From: an uncultured virus (IMG/VR IMGVR_UViG_3300005764_000014)
Taxonomy: Duplodnaviria > Heunggongvirae > Uroviricota > Caudoviricetes
IMG/VR virus record: IMGVR_UViG_3300005764_000014
Direction: 5' to 3' (one strand)
DNA length: 20,950 nt
In this document: positions 1-20,950 of the stretch, piece after piece
Position numbering within the stretch: the first letter of the stretch is position 1
Layout: each line of letters opens with the position of its first letter
Notes under the pieces: model-generated
Seen by the model: only the letters and a program-made list of their open reading frames with translations
The model's database searches: none
What the model was told of the DNA's origin: nothing
Position numbers and translations under genes: made by a program

Positions 1-728
1 CCTACCTGCCGAACGCCAAGTGCATCAACGCCCCGGAGTTCGCCAACCTGGTCAAGGCCGGGCTGGCCGTGGTGCTGGTGTGGGAAGACACCGGCCGCGA
101 CTGCGCCCGCGGCCACGCCGGCGGGGTGGCTGATGCCACCGAGGCGAACAAGCAGGCGCACGCGCTCGGCGCGGGCAGCGCGGTGATCTACTTCGCGCCG
201 TGCGACTATGACGCGCCGCCAGGCGACCAGCCCTCGATCAACGCCTACATGCAGGGTGCGGCGTCGGTGCTCGGGCACAACCGCACCGGCATGTACGGCG
301 GCTACTGGCCGCTGTCGCGGGCGCTGTCCGCGAACGTGTGCAAGTACGGCTGGCAGACCTACGCCTGGTCCGGCGGCAACTGGGACAAGCGGGCGCAACT
401 GCAGCAGTACCAGAACGGCGCGCGGCTGGGCCCGTGCGAATGCGACTACGACCGGTCCACCCAGCCGGACTACGGGCAGTGGCCCCGCCCGGCCGCGCCC
501 GCGCCCGCTCCCGCGCCGGTTGCCACCGCGCCGTCGCGTACCGCCAGCGGGGCCTACCGGCATCCCCAGGCCCACCCGATCACCCTGGAGGCCTGGGCGG
601 CCTCCCGCAACGAGCAGGTGGCCACCGCCTGGCGGATCTGGGTGACCAACATGACCGGCGACGACCTGGCCGCGTTCGCCAAGCTCGACCTGCCTGCGGG
701 CACGGTCTTCTATACCGTGAACCCGTGA
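1..728 (+). CDS. DUF1906/GH25-like peptidoglycan hydrolase, probable endolysin (5' truncated by window edge)
   Basis: Frame is open from base 3 (YLPNAKCINAPEF...). Motifs VVLVWE, IYFAPCDYD, GMYGGY, WQTYAWSGG, QLQQY, CDYD resemble Rv2525c/DUF1906 hydrolases. A Pro/Ala linker leads to a short C-terminal domain, possibly a divergent LysM-like domain. Confidence 0.8.
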   Translation, partial: YLPNAKCINAPEFANLVKAGLAVVLVWEDTGRDCARGHAGGVADATEANKQAHALGAGSAVIYFAPCDYDAPPGDQPSINAYMQGAASVLGHNRTGMYGGYWPLSRALSANVCKYGWQTYAWSGGNWDKRAQLQQYQNGARLGPCECDYDRSTQPDYGQWPRPAAPAPAPAPVATAPSRTASGAYRHPQAHPITLEAWAASRNEQVATAWRIWVTNMTGDDLAAFAKLDLPAGTVFYTVNP

Positions 729-1162
729 CCCTGTCCCCCGGCGAGGCCGCGATCCACGAGCATGTGGCCGCGCACCTGATCCCGCCGCACCGCGGGCCCG
801 CCACCAAAGTGCCCACCGGGCCACCGCGGGTGTGCTGGAAGGAGATCAACGGCGCGCTGCCAGACTTCTGGGGCACGGTGCCCGGCGCGTACCTGATCAG
901 CGTCCGGCAGGTGCACACCAGGCCGAGCCCCGACGGGCAGGGCGACGTGTACGTGATCTACCAGCTCGACGGCAGCCGCGGCACCGGAGTGCTGGCCACC
1001 CGGGACGCCGAGGTCGTGACCGTGTCCGCCCACGACGCGGTCCTCAACGCGCTGATCGCCCAGGCCCGCGACCCGGAGGAGGCGGCGCTGCTTGTGCACG
1101 CCTACGCCGACGGGGTGAAGACCGAGCGGCTCGGCTTCGTGGATGACAGGGTGGAGCCGTGA
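725..1162 (+). CDS. hypothetical protein (145 aa)
   Basis: GTG at 725 overlaps the lysin stop (GTGA); GC3-rich codons; C-terminal part of track ORF 338..1162. Confidence 0.7.
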   Translation: MTLSPGEAAIHEHVAAHLIPPHRGPATKVPTGPPRVCWKEINGALPDFWGTVPGAYLISVRQVHTRPSPDGQGDVYVIYQLDGSRGTGVLATRDAEVVTVSAHDAVLNALIAQARDPEEAALLVHAYADGVKTERLGFVDDRVEP

Positions 1163-1458
1163 GCAAGGACATCCGGTGCCCCTACTGCGGGGAGAAGTGC
1201 AGGAACAGGTGGGCGAAGCTCCTGCACAAGTGCACGGTGGCGGCCGGCTACCGCGCCCAGGCCGCCGACCCGTGGCATGACCGGGTGCTGGCGGCGATGT
1301 CGTGGTGTGCGGGGATGCAGGCGGCCGGGCACACCCGGGTGCCGATTGTCGCGGTGATGGGCCAGCTCGACCCCGAGCACAAGATGCACGGCGCACCGGA
1401 CCCCCGCGCCGACCCGGTCACCGGGTGCCTGCCGGTGACTGCGGAGCCGCCGCCGTGA
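1159..1458 (+). CDS. hypothetical protein with N-terminal CPYC...HKC possible Zn-binding motif
   Basis: GTGA overlap with the upstream stop; GGAG upstream; 99 aa. Confidence 0.65.
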   Translation: MSKDIRCPYCGEKCRNRWAKLLHKCTVAAGYRAQAADPWHDRVLAAMSWCAGMQAAGHTRVPIVAVMGQLDPEHKMHGAPDPRADPVTGCLPVTAEPPP

Positions 1459-1886
1459 GGCGGGCCGCCGCCGCGCTCGCGCTCGCGCTCGGGCTGCTCG
1501 CGCTGTCCCCGGCACGGGCGTCGGCCGAGGACCCGCACTGCATCCAGCACGGCACCAAGCACGCCTACCTGTGCTACTACCACCAGCCCGGGACCGGCGG
1601 CGGCGTGTACGCCACCCTGCTGCTGTTCGAGAACTGGTACTACTGGCACCCGCTGTCGGGTGACCTGGTGGTGGACGAGACCTACGTGCACAGCTCCGCG
1701 CCCGGCTACGCCGGGGCCCACCGGATGATCCACTTCTCCGACCTGGGCCAGGTGACCGACCAGGCCTGGCTGGCGAACTTCCCGCACAACACCGGCCCGC
1801 CGGCGGGCAGCACGCCCGCGGAGCAGCGTTCCGCGATGGACTTCCAGTACGCCATGAACGCCGACCAGATCGGGCATTCGTTCTAG
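1455..1886 (+). CDS. secreted hypothetical protein (143 aa)
   Basis: GTGA-coupled start; signal peptide MRRAAAALALALGLLALSPARASA with an AxA cleavage site; aromatic-rich mature region. Confidence 0.75.
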   Translation: MRRAAAALALALGLLALSPARASAEDPHCIQHGTKHAYLCYYHQPGTGGGVYATLLLFENWYYWHPLSGDLVVDETYVHSSAPGYAGAHRMIHFSDLGQVTDQAWLANFPHNTGPPAGSTPAEQRSAMDFQYAMNADQIGHSF

Positions 1887-1895
1887 GCTGGTTTG

Positions 1896-2060
1896 GTGAG
1901 GCGCTGCATCTGCGTGCACAAGCGCCGCGCGCACGAGCACTACCGTCCCGGGCTGGAGTGCTCACTGTGCGGGTGCATGGGCTTCCGCTGGCGCTGGCTG
2001 CACTGGCGGGCGTGGCGCGTTGATCGCATGGTCAGGGATCTGTGGAGTCAGGGGCTGTAG
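1896..2060 (+). CDS. small Cys/His Zn-finger-like protein (54 aa, not in ORF track)
   Basis: Own translation: MRRCICVHKRRAHEHYRPGLECSLCGCMGFRWRW...QGL*; CxCxH..HEHYRxGxxCxxCxC pattern. Confidence 0.6.
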   Translation: MRRCICVHKRRAHEHYRPGLECSLCGCMGFRWRWLHWRAWRVDRMVRDLWSQGL

Positions 2061-2245
2061 GGCCAGGCTCGCGCCGGGTCAGCGGGGATATGCGCGCCGC
2101 GCCTGCTGCGAGCACCCGGCGGGAGCCTGGCGCTCTTGTAAGTACAGCACGGGAGCGCGGCCGGGGCTAGCGAGTCGTTTACCGCCCCGATGTGGTGGCC
2201 CCCCTGCAGCGGCAGGCCATTGGCCCGCCGCGCCCCCGTGCTGGG

Positions 2246-2719
2246 TCAGGCCGAGCGGGCTGATCGTAGCACTCGCCCAGGCCGGTGCCGGGCCCGCAGC
2301 TCGGCGGCGTGGATCGCCGCCGCGCCTTCCAGGCTCGACCGCCCCCAGGTGGCGTGGTAGTACACCGTGCCGGCGGGGGTCACCCAGTAGATGCCCTTCA
2401 TCCCGTTGCACGCCTTGCACAGCGCTGCGAGGTTCGGGTACCAGGTCAGCCCTCCCATGATCCACGGGGTGATGTGGTCGATCTGCAGCGCGTGCCCCGA
2501 GGACCGCGCGGTGGCCCCGCAGCCGACACACCGGTTGCCGTCGGCGGCCAGCACCTTGCGCCGCAGCCGGGCGGTGATCCGGTCATGCTTGCCACGGACC
2601 CCGTGGCGGACGGTGGCCCGCCAGCGCTGCCGCCAGCGGCGCGGGAACAGCAGCCCGCGCGGGTGCACGTAGCAGGCCGCGACCAGCAGCAGCGCGGCGA
2701 TGGCCTCAGCGGTGCTCAC
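2246..2719 (-). CDS. HNH endonuclease with hydrophobic N-terminus
   Basis: RRKVLAADGNRCVGCG...LQIDHITPWIMGG...NLAALCKACNGMKG is a classic HNH/Zn-ribbon signature; GTG at 2719 overlaps the upstream TGA. Confidence 0.85.
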   Translation of the reverse strand: MSTAEAIAALLLVAACYVHPRGLLFPRRWRQRWRATVRHGVRGKHDRITARLRRKVLAADGNRCVGCGATARSSGHALQIDHITPWIMGGLTWYPNLAALCKACNGMKGIYWVTPAGTVYYHATWGRSSLEGAAAIHAAELRARHRPGRVLRSARSA

Positions 2720-2877
2720 CGCTGCTCCGGGCAGGCGCAGCCGGGCTCGTGCACGATGAACCCGAGCCTGGTGCGGTAGCACGGCGGCACCGGGTCGGGC
2801 TTCGGCTGCCGGGGCACCGGCCCGGCGGGGGTCTGCCGCTCGCTGGCCCACCAGCGGTTCCAGCGTCTCGCGTTCAC
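2716..2877 (-). CDS. small hypothetical protein (53 aa, not in ORF track)
   Basis: MNARRWNRWW...PPCYRTRLGFIVHEPGCACPEQR*; GAGGA RBS; fills the traB-HNH gap with a GTGA overlap. Confidence 0.6.
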   Translation of the reverse strand: MNARRWNRWWASERQTPAGPVPRQPKPDPVPPCYRTRLGFIVHEPGCACPEQR

Positions 2878-2884
2878 GTCCTCA

Positions 2885-4759
2885 TCATCTCCCTGTCGGC
2901 TCCAGCAGGCCGCTGGACTCGCGCAGCTTGCCCGCCTCGATCAGCCGGTCCACTTCGGTGCTGATCGTAGTCAGCGGCATGTCCGCGATCAGCTCGGTGA
3001 TCAGCTCGCCCATGCCCATCGGCCGATTCGCCAGCGCGAGCAGGATCATCAACTGCCGCGAGCTGGCCGCCTCGGCGTCGGCCTGGATGCCCGCTAGCAC
3101 CTGCCCCGCCGCCTCGATCGTGTCGGCCATCACGTCCCACACCAGGCTGTCGGGGTGGCGGATGGTCAGCGACTCCGCGGTCTCGTACGGGTCGGCCAGC
3201 TTGTCCGTCCGCATCGTGACCTCGGGCCGGTTGTCCGGCCCGGAGGCATACCCCAGGCCCCAGGTGGGGGTGCCGTCGGAGAAGTACCGGGGCAGGTCGC
3301 GGGGGTTGTTCGGCAGGTTGACGTAGCCGCCGGTGACCGCGTCCCCGGTGCGCCCGCACCACACGTTCCCGCCGACCAGGATGGACCGGACCTCCTGGGC
3401 CTTCAGCTCGGCCAGGGACGGCACCTGGGCGGCCAGCCGCAGCCGGAAGCCGACCTTGCGGCCGAGCTTCAGCAGGTCGAGAATCAGCGCCGCCGCGCCC
3501 TTGGAGGCCAGCAGGATCGGGGCCTCGTCAATGGTGATCTCGATGATCGGCACGTCGACCATGAACGGGTTGAAGAACCCCATCCCCCTGCGCCGCTTGC
3601 AGGCCGGGCCGCACCGCCCCCGGCCGCAGTCGCCGTGCTCGCGGCACCATTCCAGCTCGCTCATCCAGGCCGACCGGGCGAACATCGCCTTGTGCAGCGC
3701 GGCCAGCCAGGTCATGCACTCCTCGATGCCGCGGGCGTAGGGCACGACGTCCCGCCAGGCGGGCAGCGCCTGGCCTTCCTGCGGGTCGAGGATCACTGGG
3801 GCGATGTACCCGGAGCTGGCGGAGATGGCCAGGGACAGGTTCAGCGCGGCGGTCTTGCCGCTGCCGTCGGCCCCGGCGAAGATCGAGTGCTTGACGCCGT
3901 CCTCGGGCAGGTTGTAGAACGCCTCGTGCACCGGCTTGCCGTCGGGGAACCGGCCGATCACCGCGCGGCCGGTTCGCGGGTCGATGCCGATGCCGTCCCA
4001 CAGCCGTACCGCGTCCAGGGTGCCCGAGTTCAGCAGGGTGAGCAGGCCGTGGTGCTTGCGCCCGTCGGGATGGGACTCCGCGAACGCCTCGGTGACCGCC
4101 TTCTCGAACGTGGCGGCGATGTCGGTGCCGCAGGACAGGATCTTGTCGATGGCGTTCCGCGCGCCGTCGAGGCAGATCTCGTACTGGACGCCGTTGTCGA
4201 TCGGCTGCGGCGGGCCCAGCCACGCCACCCATTTCTTGGTGACCGCGAGCCGGGTGAACTTGGCCTCGATCGTCTCGGGCGGCGGGGCGGCGGCGGTGGT
4301 GGGCTTCCACCGGTAGTGCTCCAGCCAGAAGCAGTACGGGATGAACCACCCGGCGAGGGTGACCAGCAGCCACCAGCCGGTGCCCAGCGGCATCAGCGCC
4401 ATCGACCAGGCCGCCGCCCAGGACACCCCGCCCTGGACGTGCCAGCGGTAGAACTTCTCCCGGTGCCGGGTGGCGATCACCACGCACACCTGGGTGCCGA
4501 GCGCGGCAAGCACACCCCACCACGGGTGGCGGGCGAGCGCGGCGAGCGGGCCCGCAGCCATCAGCGCCAGCCAGGTGAACGGCAGCAACTGGTGGCGGAA
4601 CCGGAAGACGTGGATCTCGGCCAGGGGACTGGGCCTGGTGCCGCGCTGCTGCGCGTCGAGGATGGCCTGCAGGTGCTTGGCGTCGGTGCCGTTGGCCGTG
4701 ACGATAACCGGCCCCGGCGTCTTGCGCCGGGGCCGGTCATCGGTGCGGGCCTTGGCCAC
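2885..4759 (-). CDS. traB: FtsK/SpoIIIE-family conjugative DNA translocase (Streptomyces TraB-like)
   Basis: N-terminal TM segments, Walker A GADGSGKT, Walker B IIEITIDE, LGRKVG arginine-finger region, AAQ motif and a C-terminal winged-helix-like domain. Likely start is GTG 4759 after AGGGGA. Confidence 0.85.
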   Translation of the reverse strand: MAKARTDDRPRRKTPGPVIVTANGTDAKHLQAILDAQQRGTRPSPLAEIHVFRFRHQLLPFTWLALMAAGPLAALARHPWWGVLAALGTQVCVVIATRHREKFYRWHVQGGVSWAAAWSMALMPLGTGWWLLVTLAGWFIPYCFWLEHYRWKPTTAAAPPPETIEAKFTRLAVTKKWVAWLGPPQPIDNGVQYEICLDGARNAIDKILSCGTDIAATFEKAVTEAFAESHPDGRKHHGLLTLLNSGTLDAVRLWDGIGIDPRTGRAVIGRFPDGKPVHEAFYNLPEDGVKHSIFAGADGSGKTAALNLSLAISASSGYIAPVILDPQEGQALPAWRDVVPYARGIEECMTWLAALHKAMFARSAWMSELEWCREHGDCGRGRCGPACKRRRGMGFFNPFMVDVPIIEITIDEAPILLASKGAAALILDLLKLGRKVGFRLRLAAQVPSLAELKAQEVRSILVGGNVWCGRTGDAVTGGYVNLPNNPRDLPRYFSDGTPTWGLGYASGPDNRPEVTMRTDKLADPYETAESLTIRHPDSLVWDVMADTIEAAGQVLAGIQADAEAASSRQLMILLALANRPMGMGELITELIADMPLTTISTEVDRLIEAGKLRESSGLLEPTGR

Positions 4760-4766
4760 CGGTCCC

Positions 4767-5660
4767 CTACGTGGTGTGGAAGGCCGGCTCCGCGGCCTGC
4801 TCACCGGACGCCGCCACGGCCTCGTGGGTGGGCCCGTAGGTGTTGGTGACCCGGTCATGCAGCCCGGCGGCCAGATCCTTCACCCGGTTCAGGTTCTCCT
4901 TGACCTCGGCGCAGGCACGGGCCAGGTCCGCGCCGATGCCCAGGGTGGTGCCGTCGGTGGGGATGAGCCCGCCGAGCTGGTCGATCAGCGGGCCGATCTG
5001 CTCCAGCGCGGACACGTCCAGGCTGTCGGCGGCCTGGGCGACCTGCTCGCTGCTCTTGACGACCTCCTCGTAGCTGGCGTCCGACCCGCCGCCGCCGCCG
5101 TTGCCCGGTGCTCCGTTGCTCTCACTCACTGGTGTACCTCCGTTGGTTGATCCGTTTCCTTGCCCCGTCTGTGTTGGTGTCACCCAGCCGCCGAGTGGCC
5201 CGTACTCCTCCCAGGTGAGCGGGACCGCGCGCCGGCCGGGTGTCTTGCCGTCGGCCAGCGGCGGCCCGTCCGGGTTCTCGCTGCGGCGCTGGTGCCCCTG
5301 GGCGGTGACCGCCTGCCAGTGCTGCCGCGCCTCGTCCCACAGCTTCCGCCGCTCGGCCGACCGCTTGGCCTCGTCCCGGTGGGCGGTCGCCCGGGTGGTT
5401 GACAGGACGTGGTGGTGGTCGTTCATCCCGGCGCGGAACCCCTCGCGGGTGACCGGGAAGCCGTGCCGGATCTCGTTCATCCACCACCCGGTGGTCGCCT
5501 GGCGGGCGGCGCGGCGGGCGTTGCTGTTCCGGTCGTAGTGCCCGCCCCGGGCGGTCGCCCGGGTGCGGGCGGCGGTGCGCTGCCTGCCGACCGCCGTGGT
5601 GGACGCCCCCCAGGCCTGGGTGATCGCGTAGCACAGCCCGATGAAAAACAGCAGTTCCAT
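4767..5660 (-). CDS. TraA-like transfer protein (hydrophobic N-terminus, helical C-terminal domain)
   Basis: Directly upstream of traB. The C-terminus (TYGPTHEAVAASGEQAAEPAFHTT) resembles, from recall, proteins preceding traB in actinomycete elements. Internal GGAGG-N7-GTG at 5129. Confidence 0.6.
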   Translation of the reverse strand: MELLFFIGLCYAITQAWGASTTAVGRQRTAARTRATARGGHYDRNSNARRAARQATTGWWMNEIRHGFPVTREGFRAGMNDHHHVLSTTRATAHRDEAKRSAERRKLWDEARQHWQAVTAQGHQRRSENPDGPPLADGKTPGRRAVPLTWEEYGPLGGWVTPTQTGQGNGSTNGGTPVSESNGAPGNGGGGGSDASYEEVVKSSEQVAQAADSLDVSALEQIGPLIDQLGGLIPTDGTTLGIGADLARACAEVKENLNRVKDLAAGLHDRVTNTYGPTHEAVAASGEQAAEPAFHTT

Positions 5661-5661
5661 G

Positions 5662-6081
5662 TCAGCCTCCGGTGCTGATCGAGGTCGACGCCTGCGACAC
5701 CGTGGACGGCAGGCTGTTCAGCGCGGCGAACGGGGTGGCCGCCGCCGCGACCAGCACGCCGAGCACGATGGCGATGTAGAAGTTGTGGCCCTTGCCCGAA
5801 TGCCGGGGCATCGAGTGGTGTACGAACAGGAAGATCAGCACGGCGACGATGGCGGCGAAGATCGCCGCTGCGGAGTAGCCGAGGATCTGCGCGCCCAGCT
5901 TGCCGATCAGCCCGGCCGTGAACATGAGGACGCGGGCCAGGATGCCGACCAGGCGGCCGGTGGTGCCGACGGTCACGATGCCGATGAACACCACGATCGG
6001 GGCGGCTTTCTTGAACCGGCCCAGGGCGTGGGCGGTGATGGCGAGGGCGATGGCGATTAGCCCCCATTCAGCCGGTGTCAT
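5662..6081 (-). CDS. multi-pass membrane protein, Spd-like
   Basis: 139 aa with about 4 hydrophobic helices; in the tra operon. Confidence 0.7.
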   Translation of the reverse strand: MTPAEWGLIAIALAITAHALGRFKKAAPIVVFIGIVTVGTTGRLVGILARVLMFTAGLIGKLGAQILGYSAAAIFAAIVAVLIFLFVHHSMPRHSGKGHNFYIAIVLGVLVAAAATPFAALNSLPSTVSQASTSISTGG

Positions 6082-6090
6082 GGTCAGCTC

Positions 6091-6492
6091 CTAGATCACT
6101 CCGGTCAGGACCAGCACGGTGACGGTCAGCACCGTGAGGCACAGCAGCAGCTTGGGCGGTGAGTCCCCGGACCACACCAGCAGGTAGGCCAGCGGCGCGA
6201 CCGCGAAGGCGTGCACCGCGCCGTAGGCCAGCCGGGGCCAGCGCAGCGCCCCGGCGGAGTAGTACTCCGCGGCGGTGCGGTGCATCGCCCACAGCGCCAT
6301 GATCGAGGGCGGCGCGGCGTGGACCACCGAGGCACCGGACAGCGCGCCGTTCAGCACCCGGTCGATCGTGCCGGCGGTGAGGGAGCCGACCCGCTGCGGC
6401 CGGTCCTCTCGCGCGCGGGCGCGTGTGTGCGCGTTGATCCCCGGGATTTCCTCCTCGGTCGGGCGGACGGGCAGGTCGACGGGCGCGGTCAT
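6091..6492 (-). CDS. membrane protein, Spd-like
   Basis: 133 aa with two C-terminal hydrophobic helices; ATGA-coupled to the upstream gene. Confidence 0.7.
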   Translation of the reverse strand: MTAPVDLPVRPTEEEIPGINAHTRARAREDRPQRVGSLTAGTIDRVLNGALSGASVVHAAPPSIMALWAMHRTAAEYYSAGALRWPRLAYGAVHAFAVAPLAYLLVWSGDSPPKLLLCLTVLTVTVLVLTGVI

Positions 6493-6728
6493 GCGGCTCT
6501 CCCCTCGGTGCCGGCGGCCAGGCCGGCGAGGAACGTGGCGGCCTGGTGCATCAGCGCCTGGCGGTCGGCGGAGCGGGCGGCGGTGGCCCGGAACCAGTCG
6601 TAGGCGGTGGCGAGCTGCGCCTCACCGGTCGGCGCGGCCTGGAGCTGGTCCCGCCAGCGCTCGGGCCGGGCGTCACAGCGGCGCGGCTGCCGGGTGCCGT
6701 CGGCCAGCAGGCGGCGGTGGCCAGCCAT
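6489..6728 (-). CDS. hypothetical protein (79 aa)
   Basis: ATG at 6728 in a TGATG overlap; MAGHRRLL...EGRAA. Confidence 0.65.
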   Translation of the reverse strand: MAGHRRLLADGTRQPRRCDARPERWRDQLQAAPTGEAQLATAYDWFRATAARSADRQALMHQAATFLAGLAAGTEGRAA

Positions 6729-6907
6729 CAGTCCCACCATCCTTCCGGTGCGGTGATCACGATCAGCCATGGCCAGCGGGCTTCGATCTGGGCCCAGGCC
6801 CGGCGGCCGATGATCAGCATCAGCCCGGCCAGGATGGCCGCCGGGATAACGATCATCGCCCCCTGCACGAACATGATCAGCATGAACTCCAGCAGCAGCC
6901 CGATCAT
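6728..6907 (-). CDS. small membrane protein (59 aa, not in ORF track)
   Basis: MIGLLLEFMLIMFVQGAMIVIPAAILAGLMLIIGRRAWAQ...WWD*; coupled at both ends. Confidence 0.65.
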   Translation of the reverse strand: MIGLLLEFMLIMFVQGAMIVIPAAILAGLMLIIGRRAWAQIEARWPWLIVITAPEGWWD

Positions 6908-7095
6908 GCGGCCCTCATCTCATACCGGCCCGAGCGGACCTTGAAGTCCGGCCAGGTGTCCCGGTCCCAGCCGTCGGCCGACAGCCAGTTCTGCGCGGCG
7001 CGCTGCAGCCCGTCGGGAACGTCCCGCTCGTCCAGCCGGATGGTGGCAACATGGCGGCCGGAATCGGTCTCGATGTGTGCCTCACGCTCTGCCAT
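6904..7095 (-). CDS. hypothetical protein (63 aa), first gene of the tra operon
   Basis: GGGAGG RBS, then ATG 7095 (MAEREAHIETD...). Confidence 0.65.
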   Translation of the reverse strand: MAEREAHIETDSGRHVATIRLDERDVPDGLQRAAQNWLSADGWDRDTWPDFKVRSGRYEMRAA

Positions 7096-7179
7096 CGCCG
7101 CCTCCCTCACGGTCACGGGTAGACACCTGAGTGTACGCTCTTTGTCGGTACAAGTCCCTACAGCGGGGAGGTAATTCCG
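7096..7179. promoter_or_regulatory. divergent tra/GntR control region with GT-N4-AC operator-like sites
   Basis: TTGT-CGGT-ACAA at 7142-7153 and AGT-CCCT-ACAG at 7153-7163; matches the GT-N4-AC core of HutC-subfamily operators; GGGGAGG RBS for the GntR gene. Confidence 0.55.
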
Positions 7180-7923
7180 GTGGCCCTGTGGAAAACAGTC
7201 GCCCAGGCGCTGGAAGACGACATCACCAGCGGCAAGCACAGCCCGGGTGACGAGCTGCCGTCCGAAGCCGAACTCGCCCGCGAGCACGGGGTGTCCCGCA
7301 ACACCGTGCGCCGGGCGCTGGAGCACCTGACCACCCGCGGCCTGATCCGCGGTGAGGGCACCGCCCGGCGGCGGGTGGCCGAGCGGGTGCTGCTGGAGAT
7401 CCACGTCACCCGGCCGGCCTCGCGGGTGGCTGGTGGCCAGTCACCCACCCCGGGCGCGGACTCGTGGGCGCACGACGTCGCCGCGCTCGGCCTGGAGGCG
7501 GGCGTTGAGCTGTCAGTGTGGGCGGCCGAGGCGGGCGGCATGGCCGGGTGGCTGGAACTGGACCCCCGCGACCAGGTAGTCGTGCGTGAGCAGCTCCGCA
7601 CGGCGGCCGGCCGGCCGCATAACCTCGCGGCCTGGTGGTTCCCCCGGCTGATAGCGGCGGGCACCAAGCTGGTCTACCCCGACGACATCACCGAGGGCTC
7701 GGTCCCCTACCTGGGTGGCATCGGGTACGCCCCGGTCACGTTCACCGTGGAGATCGAGGCCCGGATGCCGACCGTGCATGAGGCGGGCCGGCTGCTGATC
7801 GCTCCTGGCGTGCCGGTGCTGGTGGAGTACCGCACCGGGGCCACCCAGTTCAGCCGGCAGGTGGTGTTTTGCTCGGTCACCATCTGGCCGGGGGACCGCA
7901 CCCGGCTGCTGGTGGACCTGTGA
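7180..7923 (+). CDS. GntR-family (HutC/UTRA) repressor, KorSA/TraR-like
   Basis: PGDELPSEAELAREHGVSRNTVRRALEHL is a GntR wHTH, followed by a UTRA-like C-terminus; divergent from the tra operon as in Streptomyces plasmids/AICEs. Confidence 0.9.
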   Translation: MALWKTVAQALEDDITSGKHSPGDELPSEAELAREHGVSRNTVRRALEHLTTRGLIRGEGTARRRVAERVLLEIHVTRPASRVAGGQSPTPGADSWAHDVAALGLEAGVELSVWAAEAGGMAGWLELDPRDQVVVREQLRTAAGRPHNLAAWWFPRLIAAGTKLVYPDDITEGSVPYLGGIGYAPVTFTVEIEARMPTVHEAGRLLIAPGVPVLVEYRTGATQFSRQVVFCSVTIWPGDRTRLLVDL

Positions 7924-8150
7924 GCGCGCTGCTGGCCGGCGACCGGGTCGAGGTCACCGGCGAGGGCTACGGGCGGGTGGTATCCGCGCTGCGGGACTGG
8001 AGCATGGGGGAGTGTGACGCCGCCTGGCACCACGCGGCCGGTGGCCAGCCGCCGATGCTCATCACAGTCACCCTGGACAGCGGGCGCACGGTCGCGCGGC
8101 TGCCAGGCGACGTCAGGCGGTTGGCGCAGTGCGGGACCTGCGACCCCTGA
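7920..8150 (+). CDS. hypothetical protein (76 aa)
   Basis: GTGA-coupled to the GntR gene; MSALLAGDRVEVTGEGYGRVV... Confidence 0.6.
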   Translation: MSALLAGDRVEVTGEGYGRVVSALRDWSMGECDAAWHHAAGGQPPMLITVTLDSGRTVARLPGDVRRLAQCGTCDP

Positions 8151-8322
8151 TCCGCGCTACCGCGATCGACGCGGCTGCCGCGACCGCGCCCGCGGCGAGG
8201 ATCGCGCCCGAGCCGCTCAGCGCGAAGATGTGCAGCAGGCCCAGGCCGTGGTAGTGCATCGGGCCGTCGCCTACCGGGCCGCCGTGGAAGTGCATCGCAG
8301 TGACGCCGTGATGGAACATCAT
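8113..8322 (-). CDS. small Met/His-repeat membrane peptide (69 aa)
   Basis: GGAGGA-N8-ATG; MMFHHGVTAMHFHGGPVGDGPMHYHG, then a hydrophobic helix and an Arg-rich tail. Confidence 0.65.
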   Translation of the reverse strand: MMFHHGVTAMHFHGGPVGDGPMHYHGLGLLHIFALSGSGAILAAGAVAAAASIAVARIRGRRSRTAPTA

Positions 8323-8335
8323 CCGGGGGCTCCTC

Positions 8336-8437
8336 CGGGGTGACGTAGGTGCCAGCCCAGTTTTGGCAACCGGCCCAGGGCGAGACATCCGTCATCTGAC
8401 CGATCTTTAAGAGCGATCATGGACGGGGTGACGTAGG
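8336..8437. repeat. 14-bp direct repeat CGGGGTGACGTAGG x2
   Basis: Exact copies at 8336-8349 and 8424-8437 in an intergenic region. Confidence 0.85.
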
Positions 8438-8440
8438 AAA

Positions 8441-9127
8441 TTAGCCCGCGCCGTTGCTGTGGGCCCGCGCGGCGGGGATCGCCTTCTGCGCGGCGTACTG
8501 GGTGACGCCGTGCCGTTCCACGACTTTCCGCCAGGACAGCGGCAGCCCGTGCCCGGCGTCCTCGATCAGCTTGGCCACCAGGCCCGGGTCGGGGGTGCCC
8601 GCTGGACGCCGGGCCCGGGTGGCCTTCGCCGCACGAGATGCAGGACGCCGCCGTGAAGCCGCCCCAGGCCGGGGCTCCTCGGACGGCGCGGTGTCCTGCC
8701 CGCGGGTGTGCAGCTTGACCAGCCCGAGCCCGACGCCCAGGCATATCGCCGCGCACAACGGCGCGGCGGCAGCGGCGATCTTCCACGACAGCGGGGCGTA
8801 CTGGTAGTGCAGCCAGTTGCCCGCCATCGACGCGGCCAGGCCGAACAGGGTCAGGCCCCACATCCGGCCCTTCATCCACCACCCCTCGTCGCGGCGGGTG
8901 GCGCTGTACAGCCTGCCCTCACCGACCACAACGAACACATCAATGATCAACGGGAACGCTACTGCGGCCCACAGCGGGCTGCCATGATGGGTGGCGAAAT
9001 CCAGCAGGTTCCGGTACGAGAGCACCAGTGCGGCGATCGTCGCGGCGACACATACCCCGCCCACCACCAGGTCGGCCACCCGGACGTCCTGGGGTGTGCC
9101 GTCTCGCGCCCCTGTACTTACAGCCAC
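8441..9127 (-). CDS. DUF2637-like (Spd-type) membrane protein with C-terminal HTH-like segment
   Basis: ALVLSYRNL...FPLIID...ASMAGNWLH...AAAPL pattern with about 4 TM helices; C-terminal LSWRKVVERHGVTQYAAQK. Start uncertain (GTG 9127, 7 nt after TACAGT, possibly leaderless). Confidence 0.75.
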   Translation of the reverse strand: MAVSTGARDGTPQDVRVADLVVGGVCVAATIAALVLSYRNLLDFATHHGSPLWAAVAFPLIIDVFVVVGEGRLYSATRRDEGWWMKGRMWGLTLFGLAASMAGNWLHYQYAPLSWKIAAAAAPLCAAICLGVGLGLVKLHTRGQDTAPSEEPRPGAASRRRPASRAAKATRARRPAGTPDPGLVAKLIEDAGHGLPLSWRKVVERHGVTQYAAQKAIPAARAHSNGAG

Positions 9128-9158
9128 GAGGACCACTGTACCGCCGGGAAGGGGTCTT

Positions 9159-9689
9159 GTGCCTACAAGCAACCGCAGCGCGGGGCGGATCGAGGATGAG
9201 CTGTGGCTGCCGTTCCTGGCGACCGCGCGGGACCGGGGCATCACCAACACCGACGCGATGCGCGAGGCCCTCGCGGACTGGGTGGCCAAACACCAGGCGG
9301 CCCCGCCCGGCGGGGAGCATCCGGGCGGGGCCGCACAGCCGAGGTTAGGGACAAGTGGCGACGATCCAGCCGGTGGGCCCGGTCTGGCTGTACTCCGTCT
9401 TGTACTGGCACTGGCCGTTGATGAACATCCACGCCCGGCCCCAGCGCATCGCGCCGCCGTCCTTGGTGTGGGCCACCGAGTGGATGCCGTTGTCGTAGTA
9501 GACCTTGCCACCGTAGGTGGTGTTGCCGGACCAGTCCCTCACCTGGGACCACAGCGCGGCGCAGCCGTCGGTGGTCGAGGAGTCGGAGTCCGGGTTCCAC
9601 CACACGCCGAGGTAGCCACCCGGGCCGAGCCCGATGGCGTTCTTGACGGTGCCCTGGTCGCACGGGCCTGGGATGCGCTGGCCCGCTGA
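9159..9689 (+). CDS. ribbon-helix-helix (CopG/Arc-like) protein; only the first ~46 aa look genuine
   Basis: MPTSNRSAGRIEDELWLPFLATARDRGITNTDAMREALADWVAK fits an RHH pattern; purine-rich GGGAAGGGG upstream; the frame runs on antisense to the next gene. Confidence 0.5.
   Translation: MPTSNRSAGRIEDELWLPFLATARDRGITNTDAMREALADWVAKHQAAPPGGEHPGGAAQPRLGTSGDDPAGGPGLAVLRLVLALAVDEHPRPAPAHRAAVLGVGHRVDAVVVVDLATVGGVAGPVPHLGPQRGAAVGGRGVGVRVPPHAEVATRAEPDGVLDGALVARAWDALAR
9297..9334. terminator. 14-bp-stem GC hairpin, probable terminator between convergent units
   Basis: GCGGCCCCGCCCGG-N10-CCGGGCGGGGCCGC, perfect inverted repeat. Confidence 0.7.
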
Positions 9690-9782
9690 GGCCGAGCTGG
9701 CCGGGAGCGCCAGGACGGCGGCTGCCGCAACGGCAAGAGCCGCGCCCGTGAGCGCGGCCCTGCTGATCCGTAGTTTGTGCAT
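9345..9782 (-). CDS. secreted hypothetical protein (145 aa)
   Basis: Signal peptide MHKLRISRAALTGAALAVAAAAVLALPASSASA; 4 Cys in the mature region; GAAAGGA RBS. Confidence 0.8.
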   Translation of the reverse strand: MHKLRISRAALTGAALAVAAAAVLALPASSASAGQRIPGPCDQGTVKNAIGLGPGGYLGVWWNPDSDSSTTDGCAALWSQVRDWSGNTTYGGKVYYDNGIHSVAHTKDGGAMRWGRAWMFINGQCQYKTEYSQTGPTGWIVATCP

Positions 9783-9806
9783 GGGTGAGATCCTTTCTGT
9801 GGTGGC

Positions 9807-9874
9807 GGGCGGGCCTTCCTGCCCCCCTTGGAGGAAGGCCCGCCCCCTTGGCCCGGCGGTGGATCGCCGCCGGG
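9807..9874. terminator. two tandem hairpins
   Basis: GGGCGGGCCTTCCT...AGGAAGGCCCGCCC (9807-9845) and CCCGGCGGT...GCCGCCGGG (9852-9874), just after the stop of 9878..10267. Confidence 0.55.
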
Positions 9875-9877
9875 GGC

Positions 9878-10267
9878 CTACTCGATGGGCTTGCCGTCGG
9901 CGTTGGTCATCCGCCCCGCCTCATCCCAGCAGATGACGGTGTCGTGGTGCATGTCCGCGCCGTCCGGGTGGCCCGCCGGGCGGTAGTGGCCGGCGTCGGC
10001 GTAGCAGTGGTAGGCCGCGCCCGGGTAGGGCCGGTGCTCGCACAGCATCGGCGGTGCGTGCTCGGCCTCGAAGTGGGTGGCGTAGGCCGCGCCCGCGGCC
10101 TTGGTCTCGGTGTCCTCGACGGTCGCCTCGTCGGCGGGGCCCAGGACGGTCACGGTGGCGGGGATGTCGCGGCCCCTGATCTTCCGCTTGCAGCGCGGGC
10201 AGGTCAGGTAGTAGCCGTTGACGTCCACCCCCGCCTCGGCGTACGGGAGCCCTAGTGGCGTGGTCAT
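9878..10267 (-). CDS. hypothetical protein with CPRC...H..H Zn-finger-like motif
   Basis: 129 aa, ATGA-coupled, GC3-rich. Confidence 0.7.
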   Translation of the reverse strand: MTTPLGLPYAEAGVDVNGYYLTCPRCKRKIRGRDIPATVTVLGPADEATVEDTETKAAGAAYATHFEAEHAPPMLCEHRPYPGAAYHCYADAGHYRPAGHPDGADMHHDTVICWDEAGRMTNADGKPIE

Positions 10268-10560
10268 GGCAGATCCTTGTAGTCGCAGCCCCAGACGCTC
10301 TGGGACAGGTTGTCACGGACGGAGATCAGTTCCTGGGCCTGCCAGGACAGCGCGCTGATCACGCGGGACAGTTCCCCGATGCCCTCGATGGTGAGCGAGT
10401 CACCGGCACGGGCGAACTGCCGGATGCGGTGCTCGATGCGCCGCGCCGGGTCGCAGCCGGGGGCGTGGATGCCGCCGCTCGGATTGCCGCAGGCCGGGCA
10501 ATCGAGGACGACCGCCTTGTTCCGGTCCACGGTGGCCAGGACTTCCTCCAGCCCGCTCAT
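10264..10560 (-). CDS. hypothetical protein (98 aa)
   Basis: ATG 10560 overlaps the upstream stop; CPACG..H..GC motif. Confidence 0.7.
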   Translation of the reverse strand: MSGLEEVLATVDRNKAVVLDCPACGNPSGGIHAPGCDPARRIEHRIRQFARAGDSLTIEGIGELSRVISALSWQAQELISVRDNLSQSVWGCDYKDLP

Positions 10561-11054
10561 TCCGCACCGCCCAGGCCGTAGAGCTGCTCGCCGTCCTCGG
10601 TGAACGCGGGGACGTTGATCTCGGGCATGCCACCGTGGTGCTGGCCGCCGCCCTCGCCGCAGCCGCACTGCCGGCACCAGGGCTCGGGGGCGTACTGCTC
10701 CTCGGGCCCGCCGTCGAAGCCGTGCGCGGCGCTGCCGGCGTGCATCCAGGCACCGGAGCGCAGCATGGCGTCCTCGGTGTCGAGGCAGGGCGTCAGCCAC
10801 TCGACCGCCTGTCCGGCGGCGATGGCCACGCGGGCCTCCTCGCCGGTCAGGTAGCCCGTGTAGCGGGACCGGGCGGTGGGCTTGGTGTTCAGCACCCCGG
10901 CGGCGATGGCGCGGAAGGTGGACCGGTAGCTGCGCGAGCTGGCCGGCGGCATGGTCAGCTCGTAGACCCGCGCGCCCTCGCGCAGGGCGGTGGGCACCTG
11001 CGCGCGGGTGATGCCGATACGGTCGGAGCCGTAGCCGATGGTGTACAGCTTCAT
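10557..11054 (-). CDS. hypothetical protein (165 aa)
   Basis: Starts 2 nt after the upstream stop; GC3-rich. Confidence 0.7.
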   Translation of the reverse strand: MKLYTIGYGSDRIGITRAQVPTALREGARVYELTMPPASSRSYRSTFRAIAAGVLNTKPTARSRYTGYLTGEEARVAIAAGQAVEWLTPCLDTEDAMLRSGAWMHAGSAAHGFDGGPEEQYAPEPWCRQCGCGEGGGQHHGGMPEINVPAFTEDGEQLYGLGGAE

Positions 11055-11056
11055 GA

Positions 11057-12142
11057 TCAGTTACCTGCAATTCTGGTGATCTGGTCCGCGATGTCGCGGA
11101 CCCGCTCGTAGCCGGCGTCGGCGTCGGTGGTGGCCGCCACGGCGGCGGGCCCGGTCGCGGCCGGCGGCTCCTCGGCGTACGGGTCCTCCCACTGCCATTC
11201 CGGCCACAGGTAGAACTCCATCTCCCACCAGCCGAAGGAGTAGCCGTCCGGGGCGACGTTGTCGTTCAGCCACCGCTCGACGCCGTCGGCGGCGTCGGAC
11301 AGCACTTCCTCCTCATCGAGGGTCAGGCTCTCGGCGGGACGCGGGCTCATCGAGGCCATCTTCCGGTCGGCCAGGTCGATGACCTCGGGCACCGGGTAGC
11401 CGTGGCTCTCGGCCTTCTGGATCAGGTGCGCGAGGCCGTACTGGCCCCAGTGCCCCTCGACCCAGCAGCCCTGGTCGGCCTCGGTGGCCTCGATGATCTG
11501 CGGGGGCTGGCGGTAGAAGTGTGGCTGCGGCCCGTCGTACACGCAGATCTCGGTGCCGGGCTCGCAGTAGCAGAACGCATCGCAGGCGGCGCAGGAGTGC
11601 AGCCGGCCCGGCTCGTGCCCGTTCTCGGCGTGGTCGGGGCGGAAGGCGACCGCCCAGCCGGCCGGCTCGCTCTCATCGGCGGTGTCGACCACCACGGTCA
11701 CGTAGGTGCCGGGGGTGCGCCGGATGTGGGCTTCGAGCCCGCCGCCGACGAACTCCGACGGGTGCATGACCGGGCCGGTGTAGGAGTACTGGCCGGTCCA
11801 GCCGTCCAGCAGAACCCAGCCCTGCTGCCACGCCTCGCGGACGTAGTCGGCCTCGTGCTCGGCGGAGATCTGCCCGTCATCGTCACAGGCCATCGTCAGC
11901 TCGGGCGCGTGCACCCCGGCGGCGTCGGAGATCCCGCCGCCGCCGTGCACCCGCACCGGGTGGCCGAAGTCCATGATGTCGTTGAGGGCCTTGCCCTCAT
12001 ACGGCGCGGTGACGATGTGGTAGTCCATGTTCCGCTCCGCGATCCGGTCCCCGATGCCGCCGCTGGTGCGGTGCCCGCACGCGCAGGTGAGGAACCGCTG
12101 GCCTAGCTGGTCTTGCTGGCCCACGACGCTGTGGGTGATCAT
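11057..12142 (-). CDS. acidic multi-module phage protein (361 aa) with shared C-terminal peptide
   Basis: AAGGAG RBS, ATG 12142; GWTGQYSYTGPVMHPSEFVGG module; ends ADAGYERVRDIADQITRIAGN. Confidence 0.75.
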   Translation of the reverse strand: MITHSVVGQQDQLGQRFLTCACGHRTSGGIGDRIAERNMDYHIVTAPYEGKALNDIMDFGHPVRVHGGGGISDAAGVHAPELTMACDDDGQISAEHEADYVREAWQQGWVLLDGWTGQYSYTGPVMHPSEFVGGGLEAHIRRTPGTYVTVVVDTADESEPAGWAVAFRPDHAENGHEPGRLHSCAACDAFCYCEPGTEICVYDGPQPHFYRQPPQIIEATEADQGCWVEGHWGQYGLAHLIQKAESHGYPVPEVIDLADRKMASMSPRPAESLTLDEEEVLSDAADGVERWLNDNVAPDGYSFGWWEMEFYLWPEWQWEDPYAEEPPAATGPAAVAATTDADAGYERVRDIADQITRIAGN

Positions 12143-12855
12143 GACATCTCCTTGATCTTGTAGGGGTACATGGACCCCTCGCTGTGGCGGGTGCCCGTCC
12201 GGCGGTCCCCGGTGGTCTCGTAGGCGCTGAAGTACAGCACGCCGCCCTCGTGGTAGAAGTAGCCGCCGGTCACCAGCGCCGACAGGGCCTCGCTGGTGGT
12301 CACCGTGACGTAGCCACGGGACCACAGGAACACGCCCTCGGGGGTGAAGGTGGCGATGTGCTGGCCGATCAGGTGGACCCGGACCTCGGTGCTGCCAATG
12401 CCGGCGTGCTCGGTGAACTTGCCGAACCGGTAGCCGTGGGTGTTGGCCAGCACCCGGGACGGGTGCTTGGACCGGGCGATGGCCAGGGCCTGCGCGTAGT
12501 CCATCCGGGTCCAGTGCAGCGGCGTGTAGGGCTGGCCCGCCTTGTCCTGCTCGGCCAGCCGCTCGGCCACCGGGGTGGTCCCGGTGGCCTCGAAGTAGGC
12601 GGCGAGGGCCGCCTCGATGTCGTCGCCGTTGTAGACGGTGAACTCGCCGTTGGCCGTGGTGACCGAGAACCGGCCGCCGTCAAGCTCGCGCTGATCCGGG
12701 TCGGGGTGCTCCACCCACAGGCAGTAGTCGGTGTCGTTCGCCTGGCTGCCGAAGGCGGGGCAGGCGTCGTTGTGCCAGGAGACGTCGGGCAGGCCCGCCG
12801 AGATGATCTCGGCGGGCACTGCGTATCCGGCTCCGTGCTCGGTCTCCCACTTCAT
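12139..12855 (-). CDS. phage hypothetical protein (238 aa)
   Basis: TAATG overlap at 12855; DVSWHNDACPAF motif, recalled from phage hypothetical proteins. Confidence 0.75.
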   Translation of the reverse strand: MKWETEHGAGYAVPAEIISAGLPDVSWHNDACPAFGSQANDTDYCLWVEHPDPDQRELDGGRFSVTTANGEFTVYNGDDIEAALAAYFEATGTTPVAERLAEQDKAGQPYTPLHWTRMDYAQALAIARSKHPSRVLANTHGYRFGKFTEHAGIGSTEVRVHLIGQHIATFTPEGVFLWSRGYVTVTTSEALSALVTGGYFYHEGGVLYFSAYETTGDRRTGTRHSEGSMYPYKIKEMS

Positions 12856-13088
12856 TACCGGCGCTCCGTCCCGTCCGCGTTGATCACGACGGCCATGGTG
12901 TGCCGCTTGTAGCGGATGGTCACCCGGCTGACGCCGAAAGTCTGCGCGTCGGCCTTGTTGACGGCGCGGCCGGTGTGCGCGCCCATAGACAGGACGGTGA
13001 AGTCCTTGCCCTGGTTCCACGCCTCGATGGCCTTGGCCTTGGAGGGGTAGTCCCGCCCGTACGCGGGGCCGACGGTGATGTCTTCCAT
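12855..13088 (-). CDS. small phage protein (77 aa)
   Basis: AGGAG RBS; PAYGRDY..K.......GKDF motif, recalled from phage early genes. Confidence 0.75.
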   Translation of the reverse strand: MEDITVGPAYGRDYPSKAKAIEAWNQGKDFTVLSMGAHTGRAVNKADAQTFGVSRVTIRYKRHTMAVVINADGTERR

Positions 13089-13117
13089 GTCATCTCCTGT
13101 ATCAGAATCTTGCTGCC

Positions 13118-13159
13118 AGACTATGCGCTGGCCTACGCTTCTGTCAACAGTTGAGCAGG
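13118..13159 (-). promoter_or_regulatory. sigma70/HrdB-type promoter with overlapping palindromic operator (copy 1)
   Basis: TTGACA(13147-13142)-N18-TAGTCT(13123-13118); TCAACAGTTGA at 13144-13154. Confidence 0.75.
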
Positions 13160-13164
13160 AGATT

Positions 13165-17568: not shown

Positions 17569-18405
17569 CTATTCCACGCCCGTGATGCGGCTGATCTCCT
17601 CGGTGATCGCCACCACGGCCTCGTAGGTGGTGTCCGCGCTCTCGGCGTTGCGAGCGGTGAACCCGGGGCCGGCCCAGTCATCCCCGGTGCAGCAGGACCG
17701 CTCGATGCGGCAGGTGCCGTCGCCGTTACTCACCAGGACAGCGTCCAGTTCGTGGCCGCAGCGGGTGCGGTGCCCGGCGCGCATCCGCTGGTACATCACG
17801 GTGTCAGGCAGGGGCACCCTCTCGGGAGCGGCGGCCTGCTTGGCAGCATCCCGGGCAGCCGCCTCGACGTCCTCCCAGCCGTAGTAGCCGCCGCACGAGT
17901 CGAGGGTCTCGCCGTCCGGGCCGAGCACCGCCCAGCAGAAGGTGTCGCCGTTGATGTAGTGGCTGTAGACCGCGACGTCACCGGCGATCAGCTTGGCCGC
18001 CTGCGCCTTGTCCTCATCGGACCCGGTCCATTCGGTGCCCTGGGTCTCCCGCCAGTTTTCAGCGGTGACGTAGGCCACGCCGCACTGGGCGGAGTCCCAC
18101 TTGTCATCGAAGGGGTAGGTGCGCGGCCCGGTGGACAGCGCGATGCCGCTGTGCTCGTAGACCCAGACCGGCTGGCTGTACAGCGCCACCCCGGCCTCCA
18201 GCAGGTGGCCCTCGATCTGCGGCCACGCCGGGCCGTTGCCGAACGAGGCGATGTCCAGCCCGGCGTCGTTGGGGAAGTTCCACCGCCGGCCCCACATGAT
18301 CAGGTCGCAGCCGTGGATGTCGTCGCGCGGGGAGCCGGTGTCCGGGTCGTGGTCGATCTCGACCGTCAGGCCGGCCTCGGTGAATGTGTCTATTGTCATT
18401 GTCAT
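17569..18405 (-). CDS. conserved phage/ICE-type acidic hypothetical protein with shared C-terminal peptide
   Basis: YEHSGIALS...WDSAQCG...Y..YINGD...DSCGGYYG motifs, recalled from mobile-element hypothetical proteins; ends ADTTYEAVVAITEEISRITGVE. Start 18405 or 18399. Confidence 0.8.
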   Translation of the reverse strand: MTMTIDTFTEAGLTVEIDHDPDTGSPRDDIHGCDLIMWGRRWNFPNDAGLDIASFGNGPAWPQIEGHLLEAGVALYSQPVWVYEHSGIALSTGPRTYPFDDKWDSAQCGVAYVTAENWRETQGTEWTGSDEDKAQAAKLIAGDVAVYSHYINGDTFCWAVLGPDGETLDSCGGYYGWEDVEAAARDAAKQAAAPERVPLPDTVMYQRMRAGHRTRCGHELDAVLVSNGDGTCRIERSCCTGDDWAGPGFTARNAESADTTYEAVVAITEEISRITGVE

Positions 18406-20417: not shown

Positions 20418-20950
20418 TCAGTTACCCGCTATGCGGGAGATTTCCTCGGTGATCTGCCGGACCTGCTCGTAGCTGCTGTCGCTGTGGTGCTCAGCCGAGC
20501 CGGGGCCAGTCTTACTGCGCCGGCAGGCCGGGTCGTCGCAGTAGTCGTAGCGGCCGGACGGGTCGTGGTAGTGGCCGGTCCCGGGTGCGGGAGGCCAGGT
20601 GCCGTCGGGGGTCATGCCCTCGATGGTGTGCCGGCCGCCCTTGGGGCAGTCCGGGTTCCACGACCACGGCTGGGTTTTCACCACGCAGTAGGCGTCATTC
20701 CGGGCCTCGTACTGGACGCCCTCGCCGCACTTGGTGCACGGCCCCGAGCCGTAGTTGCCGCCGCTCTCGATCAGGTCGTGACGCGGGGTGTGGTTCGGGA
20801 AGTAGGACTTGACGCACAGGTAGCCCAGGTGGTGCTCGTCCGGGTACTCCGGGCCAGGCACCTGGTGGTGGCTGTTGCTGGTGCCACCGTGGGTGTGGTC
20901 GATGTGGTAGTCCAGCCCGCGCACGTTCCAGAACGTCTCCCCGCAGGCGC
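20418..20950 (-). CDS. Cys/His-rich protein (5' truncated) with shared C-terminal peptide
   Basis: Frame is open to the window end (ACGETFWNVRGLDYH...); ends SDSSYEQVRQITEEISRIAGN. Confidence 0.75.
   Translation of the reverse strand, partial: ACGETFWNVRGLDYHIDHTHGGTSNSHHQVPGPEYPDEHHLGYLCVKSYFPNHTPRHDLIESGGNYGSGPCTKCGEGVQYEARNDAYCVVKTQPWSWNPDCPKGGRHTIEGMTPDGTWPPAPGTGHYHDPSGRYDYCDDPACRRSKTGPGSAEHHSDSSYEQVRQITEEISRIAGN

Follow-up and report, generated by a model that had tools for sequence, protein, structure and literature searches.

A shared C-terminal peptide on three early-region proteins of a tailed actinophage lineage and its weak resemblance to a helix of the protein encoded beside an FtsK-like pump

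What might be the function of a short peptide that recurs at the very end of three unrelated phage proteins and resembles a helix of a fourth? This question is raised by a stretch of 20,950 nucleotides from an uncultured virus (IMG/VR record IMGVR_UViG_3300005764_000014), referred to here in its full length as the window. Three of its early-region genes encode proteins that end in variants of the same 20 residues (tags 1 to 3), and a similar segment lies inside the product of the gene adjoining that of an FtsK-like DNA pump ("TraB"); this product is called the TraA-like protein. An earlier note on this DNA suggested that the tag imitates a helix by which the TraA-like protein docks; tagged cargo would then bind TraB or the TraA-like helical bundle and reach the recipient together with the DNA. 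Our results favor a more limited role. In our view the chances are about even that the tag docks its carriers, as a helix, to some shared partner; it is unlikely that this partner is the TraA-like/TraB membrane complex, and very improbable indeed that the tagged proteins are moved along with the DNA. Two records serve for comparison throughout: the nearest record, a 35,316-base IMG/VR entry identical (100%) to window positions 964-20950, and a more distant relative of 75,011 bases (CheckV completeness 96%), referred to as the 75-kb relative.

The existence of shared C-terminal tags was borne out. Each of the three lies one or two residues before a stop codon. For the 41 called proteins of 60 residues or more in the nearest record, an all-against-all comparison of the 30 C-terminal residues placed the tag pairs (scores of 48, 48 and 32) first to third among 820 tail pairs, above a background maximum of 31. 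Any two tags have 10-13 of 20 residues and 36-41 of 60 bases (60-68%) in common, and 4-5 of the identical residues in each pair are written with different codons, including switches between the two families of Ser and of Arg codons. Because the codons differ while the residues are kept, the tags are conserved as peptide and not as DNA. A strict degenerate DNA pattern recovered all three tags in the window, where none was expected.

Outside the tail the three carriers have no similarity to one another, and they match different families or none in Pfam, PHROG and NCBIfam; what they have in common is the same short peptide at the extreme C-terminus. The peptide is dispensable for the fold of at least the tag 1 and tag 2 carriers, as homologues of both exist without the tail. 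Residues 1-192 of the tag 2 carrier match phrog_6186 (E 1.5e-23), and its homologues on 45 plasmids and 15 phages cover 65% of it or less and never include the last ~100 residues or the tail. All four homologues of the tag 1 carrier (183-248 amino acids) stop before the tail, two of them on ~2-kb contigs where they are possibly cut. No relatives of the tag 3 carrier were found in Pfam, PHROG, NCBIfam or protein-atlas searches, a protein-atlas look-up of the tag 1 carrier gave no usable lead, and the sequences clustered with the tagged proteins are almost identical to them and add no variation. The N-terminal domain of the tag 2 carrier is itself a cross-phylum mobile-element domain, unannotated on the 45 plasmids (mainly of the Roseobacter group and Pseudomonas) and present on the 15 phages, which infect Alphaproteobacteria and others.

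From its invariant Tyr onward the tag is amphipathic (hydrophobic moment 0.43-0.65, net charge 0 to -2), with hydrophobic residues spaced 3-3-4-3 and an invariant Glu and Arg on the polar face. In a single-sequence model of the tag 2 protein, with a mean predicted local distance difference test (pLDDT) of 34.2, a low-confidence helix is predicted at residues 261-275, beginning at the Tyr; the rest of this model is unusable. A Gly-Pro turn is found 8-11 residues before the Asp of the tag in the three carriers, and Ala-Pro-Gly occurs at the same distance in the TraA-like protein.

It is reasonable to think that the three tags could be copies of one modular, lineage-specific docking peptide. This peptide would be an amphipathic, mildly acidic helix of roughly 16 residues running from the invariant Tyr, preceded by a Ser/Ala-Asp-x-x cap and a flexible Gly-Pro linker. 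Three proteins from the variable early region of a tailed actinophage, unrelated in other respects, would have acquired it at their C-termini, and its role would be to tether them to a common binding site. The candidate site is on the membrane-anchored TraA-like protein, namely its putatively cytoplasmic domain of three helices, or else the contact partner of the first helix of that domain (helix 1). We favor the docking-peptide reading because a selected, modular helix-on-linker tail sits on three unrelated proteins, and the TraA-like/TraB complex is the only candidate partner that can be named, because of the sequence link to helix 1. From these data we infer that the tags form a free helix on a linker and bind a partner, and the choice of partner is inferred in the same way.

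The sequence link concerns the segment at window positions 5025-5084 on the minus strand, whose exact translation (residues 193-212 of the 297-residue open reading frame, ORF) gives the 20 residues quoted in the earlier note. It aligns to the three tags without gaps, with 6-8 of 20 residues identical to individual tags, and when a profile of the three tags was scored against the contig proteins, this segment was the only match other than the tags. A 20-position hidden Markov model (HMM) of the tags was run on the six-frame translation of the window (365 ORFs, 37,162 amino acids). It scored the tags at 40.5-45.1 bits; the segment followed with 11.2 bits (E 0.0065), ahead of a match of 5.3 bits, and its alignment spans tag positions 1-15 only. 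An independent implementation on the nearest record recovered these four sites and nothing else, the segment scoring 13.6 bits (E 0.005). Not one of 300 shuffled proteomes (31 proteins, 6,049 amino acids, tags removed) reached the real score of 10.0, the maximum being 6.8, and the reversed proteins scored 0.7.

The resemblance can also be followed in the family of the TraA-like protein. Compared by hhalign with the 10-member family alignment, the tag profile was placed with all 20 columns on helix 1 (P 3.2e-4, probability 39%), and the same register was obtained when the window's own row was removed (P 0.0012, probability 19.5%, score 20.8). Controls for this last score were lower throughout: 11.9-12.7 for reversed alignments, 10.1 for the TraB alignment and a maximum of 13.7 for column shuffles, of which 0 of 200 reached 20.7. 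By BLOSUM62, the best ungapped 20-mer against the tags was helix 1, in register, in 9 of the 10 family members, and the score was highest in the window's own copy (38.0 vs 13.3-27.7). Helix 1 and the tag have in common a cap-Tyr-Glu-x-Val start and the hydrophobic spacing. Altogether, the resemblance is weak but beyond chance, with a significance roughly between one in a few hundred and one in a thousand. A complex prediction that joined TraA-like residues 190-297 (10-row alignment) to the tag tail (3-row alignment) scored 0.01 against a mark of 0.32; it was run without controls and counts neither way.

No Pfam, PHROG or NCBIfam family matches the TraA-like protein. Its homologues comprise eight metagenomic proteins (29-43% identity) and one in the 75-kb relative, together with a distant one of 26% identity beside a TraB relative on a metagenome contig; scans of genome, metagenome and viral contigs with the family alignment confirmed no further relative. 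In an AlphaFold2 model built on the 10-row alignment (mean pLDDT 68.6; blocks of the C-terminal domain 76-86), a long helix is predicted at residues 69-128, a disordered linker at about 129-196 and then a C-terminal unit of helices 197-213, 217-232 and 237-285, of which the first begins at the Tyr; within the linker, residues 151-193 form the disordered stretch ahead of this helix. No Foldseek match to the model reached E 0.001, and the rows were generic helical hairpins only (best E 0.23). The Arg-rich stretch behind the membrane helix suggests, by the positive-inside rule, that the bulk of the protein, including the helical domain, is probably cytoplasmic. The identity implied by its name did not survive: a tblastn search with the 297 residues against 72,556 plasmids gave no match at E 1e-3, and because it has neither a plasmid match nor a known family, "TraA" is a positional label only. 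The label presumably derives from TraA of plasmid pSN22, with which the protein has in common only a position immediately upstream of the pump gene, as the plasmid search just described gave no homology in sequence.

Several observations weigh against the docking reading, and above all against the TraA-like/TraB complex as the partner. The 75-kb relative encodes TraB, the TraA-like protein, the membrane proteins and a GntR regulator, and no tag was found in it, nor are there shared tails among its proteins (66 tails, 2,145 pairs, maximum 31). No tag occurs within 10 kb upstream of TraB in a second relative either. Docking to the cassette as a general role of the tag is doubtful because cassette-bearing relatives lack tags; this, and the fact that helix 1 looks like part of its own bundle, led us to lower the probability given to this partner. 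As the tag is found in no other element, conservation across lineages is of no use as evidence. At the level of sequence, the tag HMM gives 0.4 bits or less to the other nine TraA-like family members. With a helix-1 HMM made without the window's row, tag 2 scored 6.4 bits, under a noise match of 8.4, and tags 1 and 3 fell outside the top 14. Finally, shuffled and reversed sequences are poor models of natural capped amphipathic helices, so that a generic structural resemblance has a place among the explanations.

The wider searches gave a consistent result, namely that the tag is unique to one lineage. The strict DNA pattern had no match in 185,579 species genomes or in IMG/VR. A word search with the last 46 residues of the tag 1 carrier in 5.8 billion clusters found only itself, and an exhaustive tag-profile search of 1,835,955,588 representative proteins returned the tag 3 protein itself and four repeat-driven artefacts only. 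The tag HMM found nothing above 4.0 bits in the six frames of the 75-kb relative, and no tag was seen on any relative found by TraB queries (metagenome records searched in part). The earlier note had proposed to test whether the tag co-occurs with traA and traB across genomes; relatives that keep both genes were found to have no tag. A looser DNA pattern had 3 matches in IMG/VR against ~3.5 expected (a hand estimate from a guessed collection size), two of them internal and all in unrelated contexts. One, at positions 3001-3047 (plus strand) of a 151-kb viral contig of 29% G+C, falls at the extreme C-terminus of a short ORF that lies downstream of a prohead-protease-like ORF and just before a gene that reads as structural, possibly capsid.

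The same note had taken the element for a conjugative-type system; its context is instead that of a tailed phage. We assign it to a tailed actinophage lineage that carries a plasmid-like pump, regulator and membrane-protein module, because the 75-kb relative has head, tape measure, terminase and endolysin genes: a major head protein of HK97 type (phrog_1650, 3.7e-71), a tape measure protein (5.2e-35), a large terminase (2.3e-18) and an endolysin (3.4e-31). In this relative head, tail, packaging and lysis genes, as expected of Caudoviricetes, are found together with the cassette. For the window's own lineage the phage evidence covers a lysin (Pfam) and replication genes. Past the window, the nearest record runs into a phage-type replication block with PHROG matches to a Sak4-like ATPase, an exonuclease and a DNA polymerase; by their sequences, an SNF2-like helicase, a RuvC-like protein, a primase-polymerase and a MazG-like protein are probably also encoded there. 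Of 44 called proteins, the 75-kb relative has homologues of only 11, none of them tagged; all three tagged genes sit between the cassette and the replication genes, in a non-conserved stretch. The G+C content of the window is 65-73%, most genes are on the minus strand, and no near-identical DNA was found in plasmids or phages.

The genes of the cassette are listed in Table 1. The pump matches Pfam FtsK_SpoIIIE (PF01580) with 22.4 bits (E 9.3e-5), just below the curated cut-off of 24, and the NCBIfam EccCa domain with 19.3 bits only. Homologues were found by tblastn on 42 actinomycete plasmids, 34 of them from Streptomyces (28-37% identity over 44-65% of the protein, E 1e-26 to 9e-32), which places it with the pumps of actinomycete conjugative plasmids; there was no match among 50,697 deposited phage genomes. 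The name TraB is our own, because the plasmid records label these homologues as hypothetical or by a helix-turn-helix domain only. Queries with the pump found one viral record, its metagenome twin and three further metagenome contigs, and the TraA-like gene adjoins the FtsK-like pump in every relative seen. The order endolysin, HNH gene, pump, TraA-like gene, two membrane-protein genes and divergent GntR gene is identical in the window and the 75-kb relative, with identities of 55-56% for the pump, 34% for the TraA-like protein, 54% and 46% for the membrane proteins and 53% for GntR.

Table 1. Positions in the window of the tags, the segment that resembles them and the genes of the pump cassette.
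Feature	Position	Strand	Remarks
FtsK-like DNA translocase ("TraB"), 657 amino acids	2885..4858	-	directly downstream of the TraA-like gene; its start overlaps the TraA-like ORF
TraA-like protein, 297 amino acids	4767..5660	-	N-terminal membrane helix, Arg-rich stretch, long helix, disordered Gly/Pro linker, three-helix C-terminal domain (predicted)
Segment under study, residues 193-212 of the TraA-like protein	5025..5084	-	four-residue cap and first helix of the C-terminal domain
Two small membrane-protein genes, 139 and 133 amino acids	5662..6492	-	directly upstream of the TraA-like gene
GntR/UTRA-family regulator	7180..7923	+	Pfam GntR 8.7e-17, UTRA 2.2e-11; divergent from the cassette
Tag 3, 20 residues, one before stop	11063..11122	-	ORF end 11057; carrier 361 amino acids in protein collections (start near 12142), 422 as longest ORF
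Tag 2, 20 residues, two before stop	17578..17637	-	carrier 278 amino acids, 17569-18405
Tag 1, 20 residues, one before stop	20424..20483	-	ORF end 20418; carrier 381 amino acids in the nearest record; 5' end outside the window

With the HNH gene included, this plasmid-type module spans window positions 2246-7923, and positions 44526-50066 in the record of the 75-kb relative. It holds two to three membrane-protein genes and is placed right behind the endolysin. It may represent phage use of intramycelial DNA-spreading machinery.

The same features of the tag lend themselves to other explanations. The three tails might bind each other, a heteromeric coiled coil or bundle joining the carriers, in which case the resemblance to the TraA-like protein would be a coincidence or would reflect shared ancestry. 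The 35-kb record contains the tag exactly three times, its helices show the amphipathic 3-3-4-3 spacing, and the invariant Glu and Arg of the polar face are what specific pairing predicts. However, about 16 helical residues are short for a stable coiled coil, and the copy number is known for a 35-kb record of a genome of roughly 82 kb. We regard mutual assembly as rather improbable.

A tag without function is to be given a similarly small probability. The tails would then be recombination relics of one 3' gene end, and their similarity to the TraA-like protein a chance meeting of capped acidic helices. The confinement of the tag to one lineage would fit this, as would the 10-13 bits of the helix match and the location in an early region that is a recombination hot spot, judging by the few homologues found in the 75-kb relative. 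The codon changes among the identical residues, at the nucleotide identity reported above, argue instead for long purifying selection. In addition, all chance controls were exceeded, and the register on helix 1 was reproduced without the window's row.

It is similarly improbable, although conceivable by analogy, that the tag is a virion-targeting peptide that binds the procapsid interior or a scaffold and so brings the three proteins into the particle, to be injected along with the DNA. Some phage proteins are known to be packaged and injected to counter host restriction. The element belongs to a tailed phage lineage with an HK97-type head protein family in the relative, and the tagged genes lie in the variable early region, probably the usual place of counter-defence genes. 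There is precedent in encapsulins, whose C-terminal peptides load unrelated cargo into HK97-fold shells, according to the accessible part of PMC8346489. The loose-pattern match at an ORF C-terminus before an apparent capsid gene, one of three, is a chance-level curiosity in the same direction. On the other hand, the tail of the relative's presumed scaffold is unlike the tag, and virion targeting leaves the resemblance to the TraA-like helix unexplained.

The proposal that tagged cargo is pumped or escorted to the recipient with the DNA is highly improbable. As regards its premise of helix mimicry, the relation in sequence stood, weak and above the null models, at the family level too; docking, binding to TraB or the TraA-like protein and protein transfer, which were built on it, are speculative. 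FtsK-like EccC ATPases of type VII secretion do recognise the C-terminal tails of their substrates. The gene for the TraA-like protein keeps its place beside the pump in all relatives seen, and contact would be topologically possible if the TraA-like helical domain is cytoplasmic, as the tagged proteins, which have no signal sequence, should be. Nevertheless, cassette-bearing relatives lack tagged proteins, a tailed phage already owns a route into cells, and in the model helix 1 appears to belong to the TraA-like protein's own three-helix domain, with no mark of docking. TraB-type pumps move double-stranded DNA through the channel of a hexamer, and no protein substrate is described in the accessible part of PMC4447253. 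A literature search by title or abstract likewise found no protein-cargo signal for TraB systems. In its most elaborate form, the idea would be that a phage captured a plasmid-type TraB/Spd apparatus and spreads its genome between hyphal compartments without particles, sending along early, probably counter-defence, proteins that copy helix 1 and are docked at the pump. This is extremely improbable; if true, FtsK-type conjugation systems would have their first known signal for protein cargo. Finally, a DNA- or RNA-level element was ruled out, the residues being kept despite the codon differences, and a membrane-targeting helix by the net charge.

The docking-peptide reading gains some perspective from known systems. 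The tag resembles known C-terminal address peptides in kind and belongs to none of them, and no known family covers the tail. The encapsulin loading peptide is a short extended peptide, whereas the phage tag is helical and acidic. Encapsulin cargo-loading likewise relies on a short C-terminal extension and a flexible linker on unrelated carriers that go to one site, as far as the accessible part of PMC8346489 describes it. The phage tag differs from those peptides in sequence and length.

In type VII secretion, too, an FtsK-family ATPase works beside a small helical protein, and substrates carry a C-terminal signal. This signal is Tyr-x-x-x-Asp/Glu at the C-terminal end of a helical hairpin; the tag was considered as a signal of this type and rejected, the residue at Tyr+4 being Arg or Val in the three tags and in the TraA-like segment. 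Moreover, the pump here has one ATPase domain match, and no other type VII component was seen. In the Foldseek search the TraA-like model gave weak, non-significant rows to WXG100 hairpins (E 0.4-0.6). Separately, at window positions 4767-4940 (minus strand) the TraA-like family keeps an extreme C-terminal tail with an invariant Tyr (residue 275) behind the long last helix. WXG100-like rows and a conserved tail beside an FtsK-like ATPase recall type VII secretion substrates, which is only a lead.

The closest parallel for the cassette itself is the plasmid transfer and spreading apparatus of Streptomyces, as described for pSVH1 in the accessible part of PMC4447253: as in the window, there is an FtsK-like pump, a divergent GntR regulator and small membrane-protein genes upstream of the pump. 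The same part of that source mentions Spd homologues on some actinophages, which might help to spread phage DNA. In contrast to the pSVH1-type system, the module is found here in a tailed phage genome, between lysis and early genes, and its TraA-like protein has no plasmid homologue; nor are tagged accessory proteins described for the plasmid system in the text accessible from PMC4447253.

Short peptides that address unrelated proteins organise cargo in many settings, as secretion signals, encapsulin loading peptides and clamp-binding motifs do. Here an address-type peptide occurs in a phage lineage absent from culture collections, with a statistical link to a protein encoded beside a plasmid-type pump. 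The identity of its receptor would reveal what links three orphan early proteins, and would help to test whether the TraB/Spd modules carried by phages have a role beyond moving DNA. A private docking tag, the more modest outcome, could still serve as a handle for pulling down the partners of phage proteins that cannot be annotated.

Three further features of the DNA were observed. Window positions 1-963 are unrelated to positions 1-958 of the nearest record, and identity begins at window position 964. Left of this junction the window continues into a phage lysin, like the 75-kb relative, and the nearest record, labelled a provirus, begins with an ORF that reads as HPr-like. The junction near window position 960 may be an integration junction or a chimeric assembly.

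An ORF for a C-5 cytosine methyltransferase lies at positions 13165-14715 (minus strand), with Pfam covering residues 7-170 of 516 only. The G+C content at its third codon positions (0.80) is the lowest among the called genes. A frame at positions 13668-14603 that overlaps it contains repeated Pro-Thr-Pro-type stretches and looks more like the missing middle of the enzyme. A frameshift in the gene, or translation through a shift, may explain this.

Several early-region and replication genes, including two of the tagged ones, start with Met-Thr-Met-Thr or Met-Met-Met. At three gene starts, GGAG directly precedes a run of ATG (positions 16197-16213, 16948-16970 and 17490-17506, minus strand); this pattern has 5 overlapping matches in the window where 0.09 would be expected, and is a shared translation-start context.

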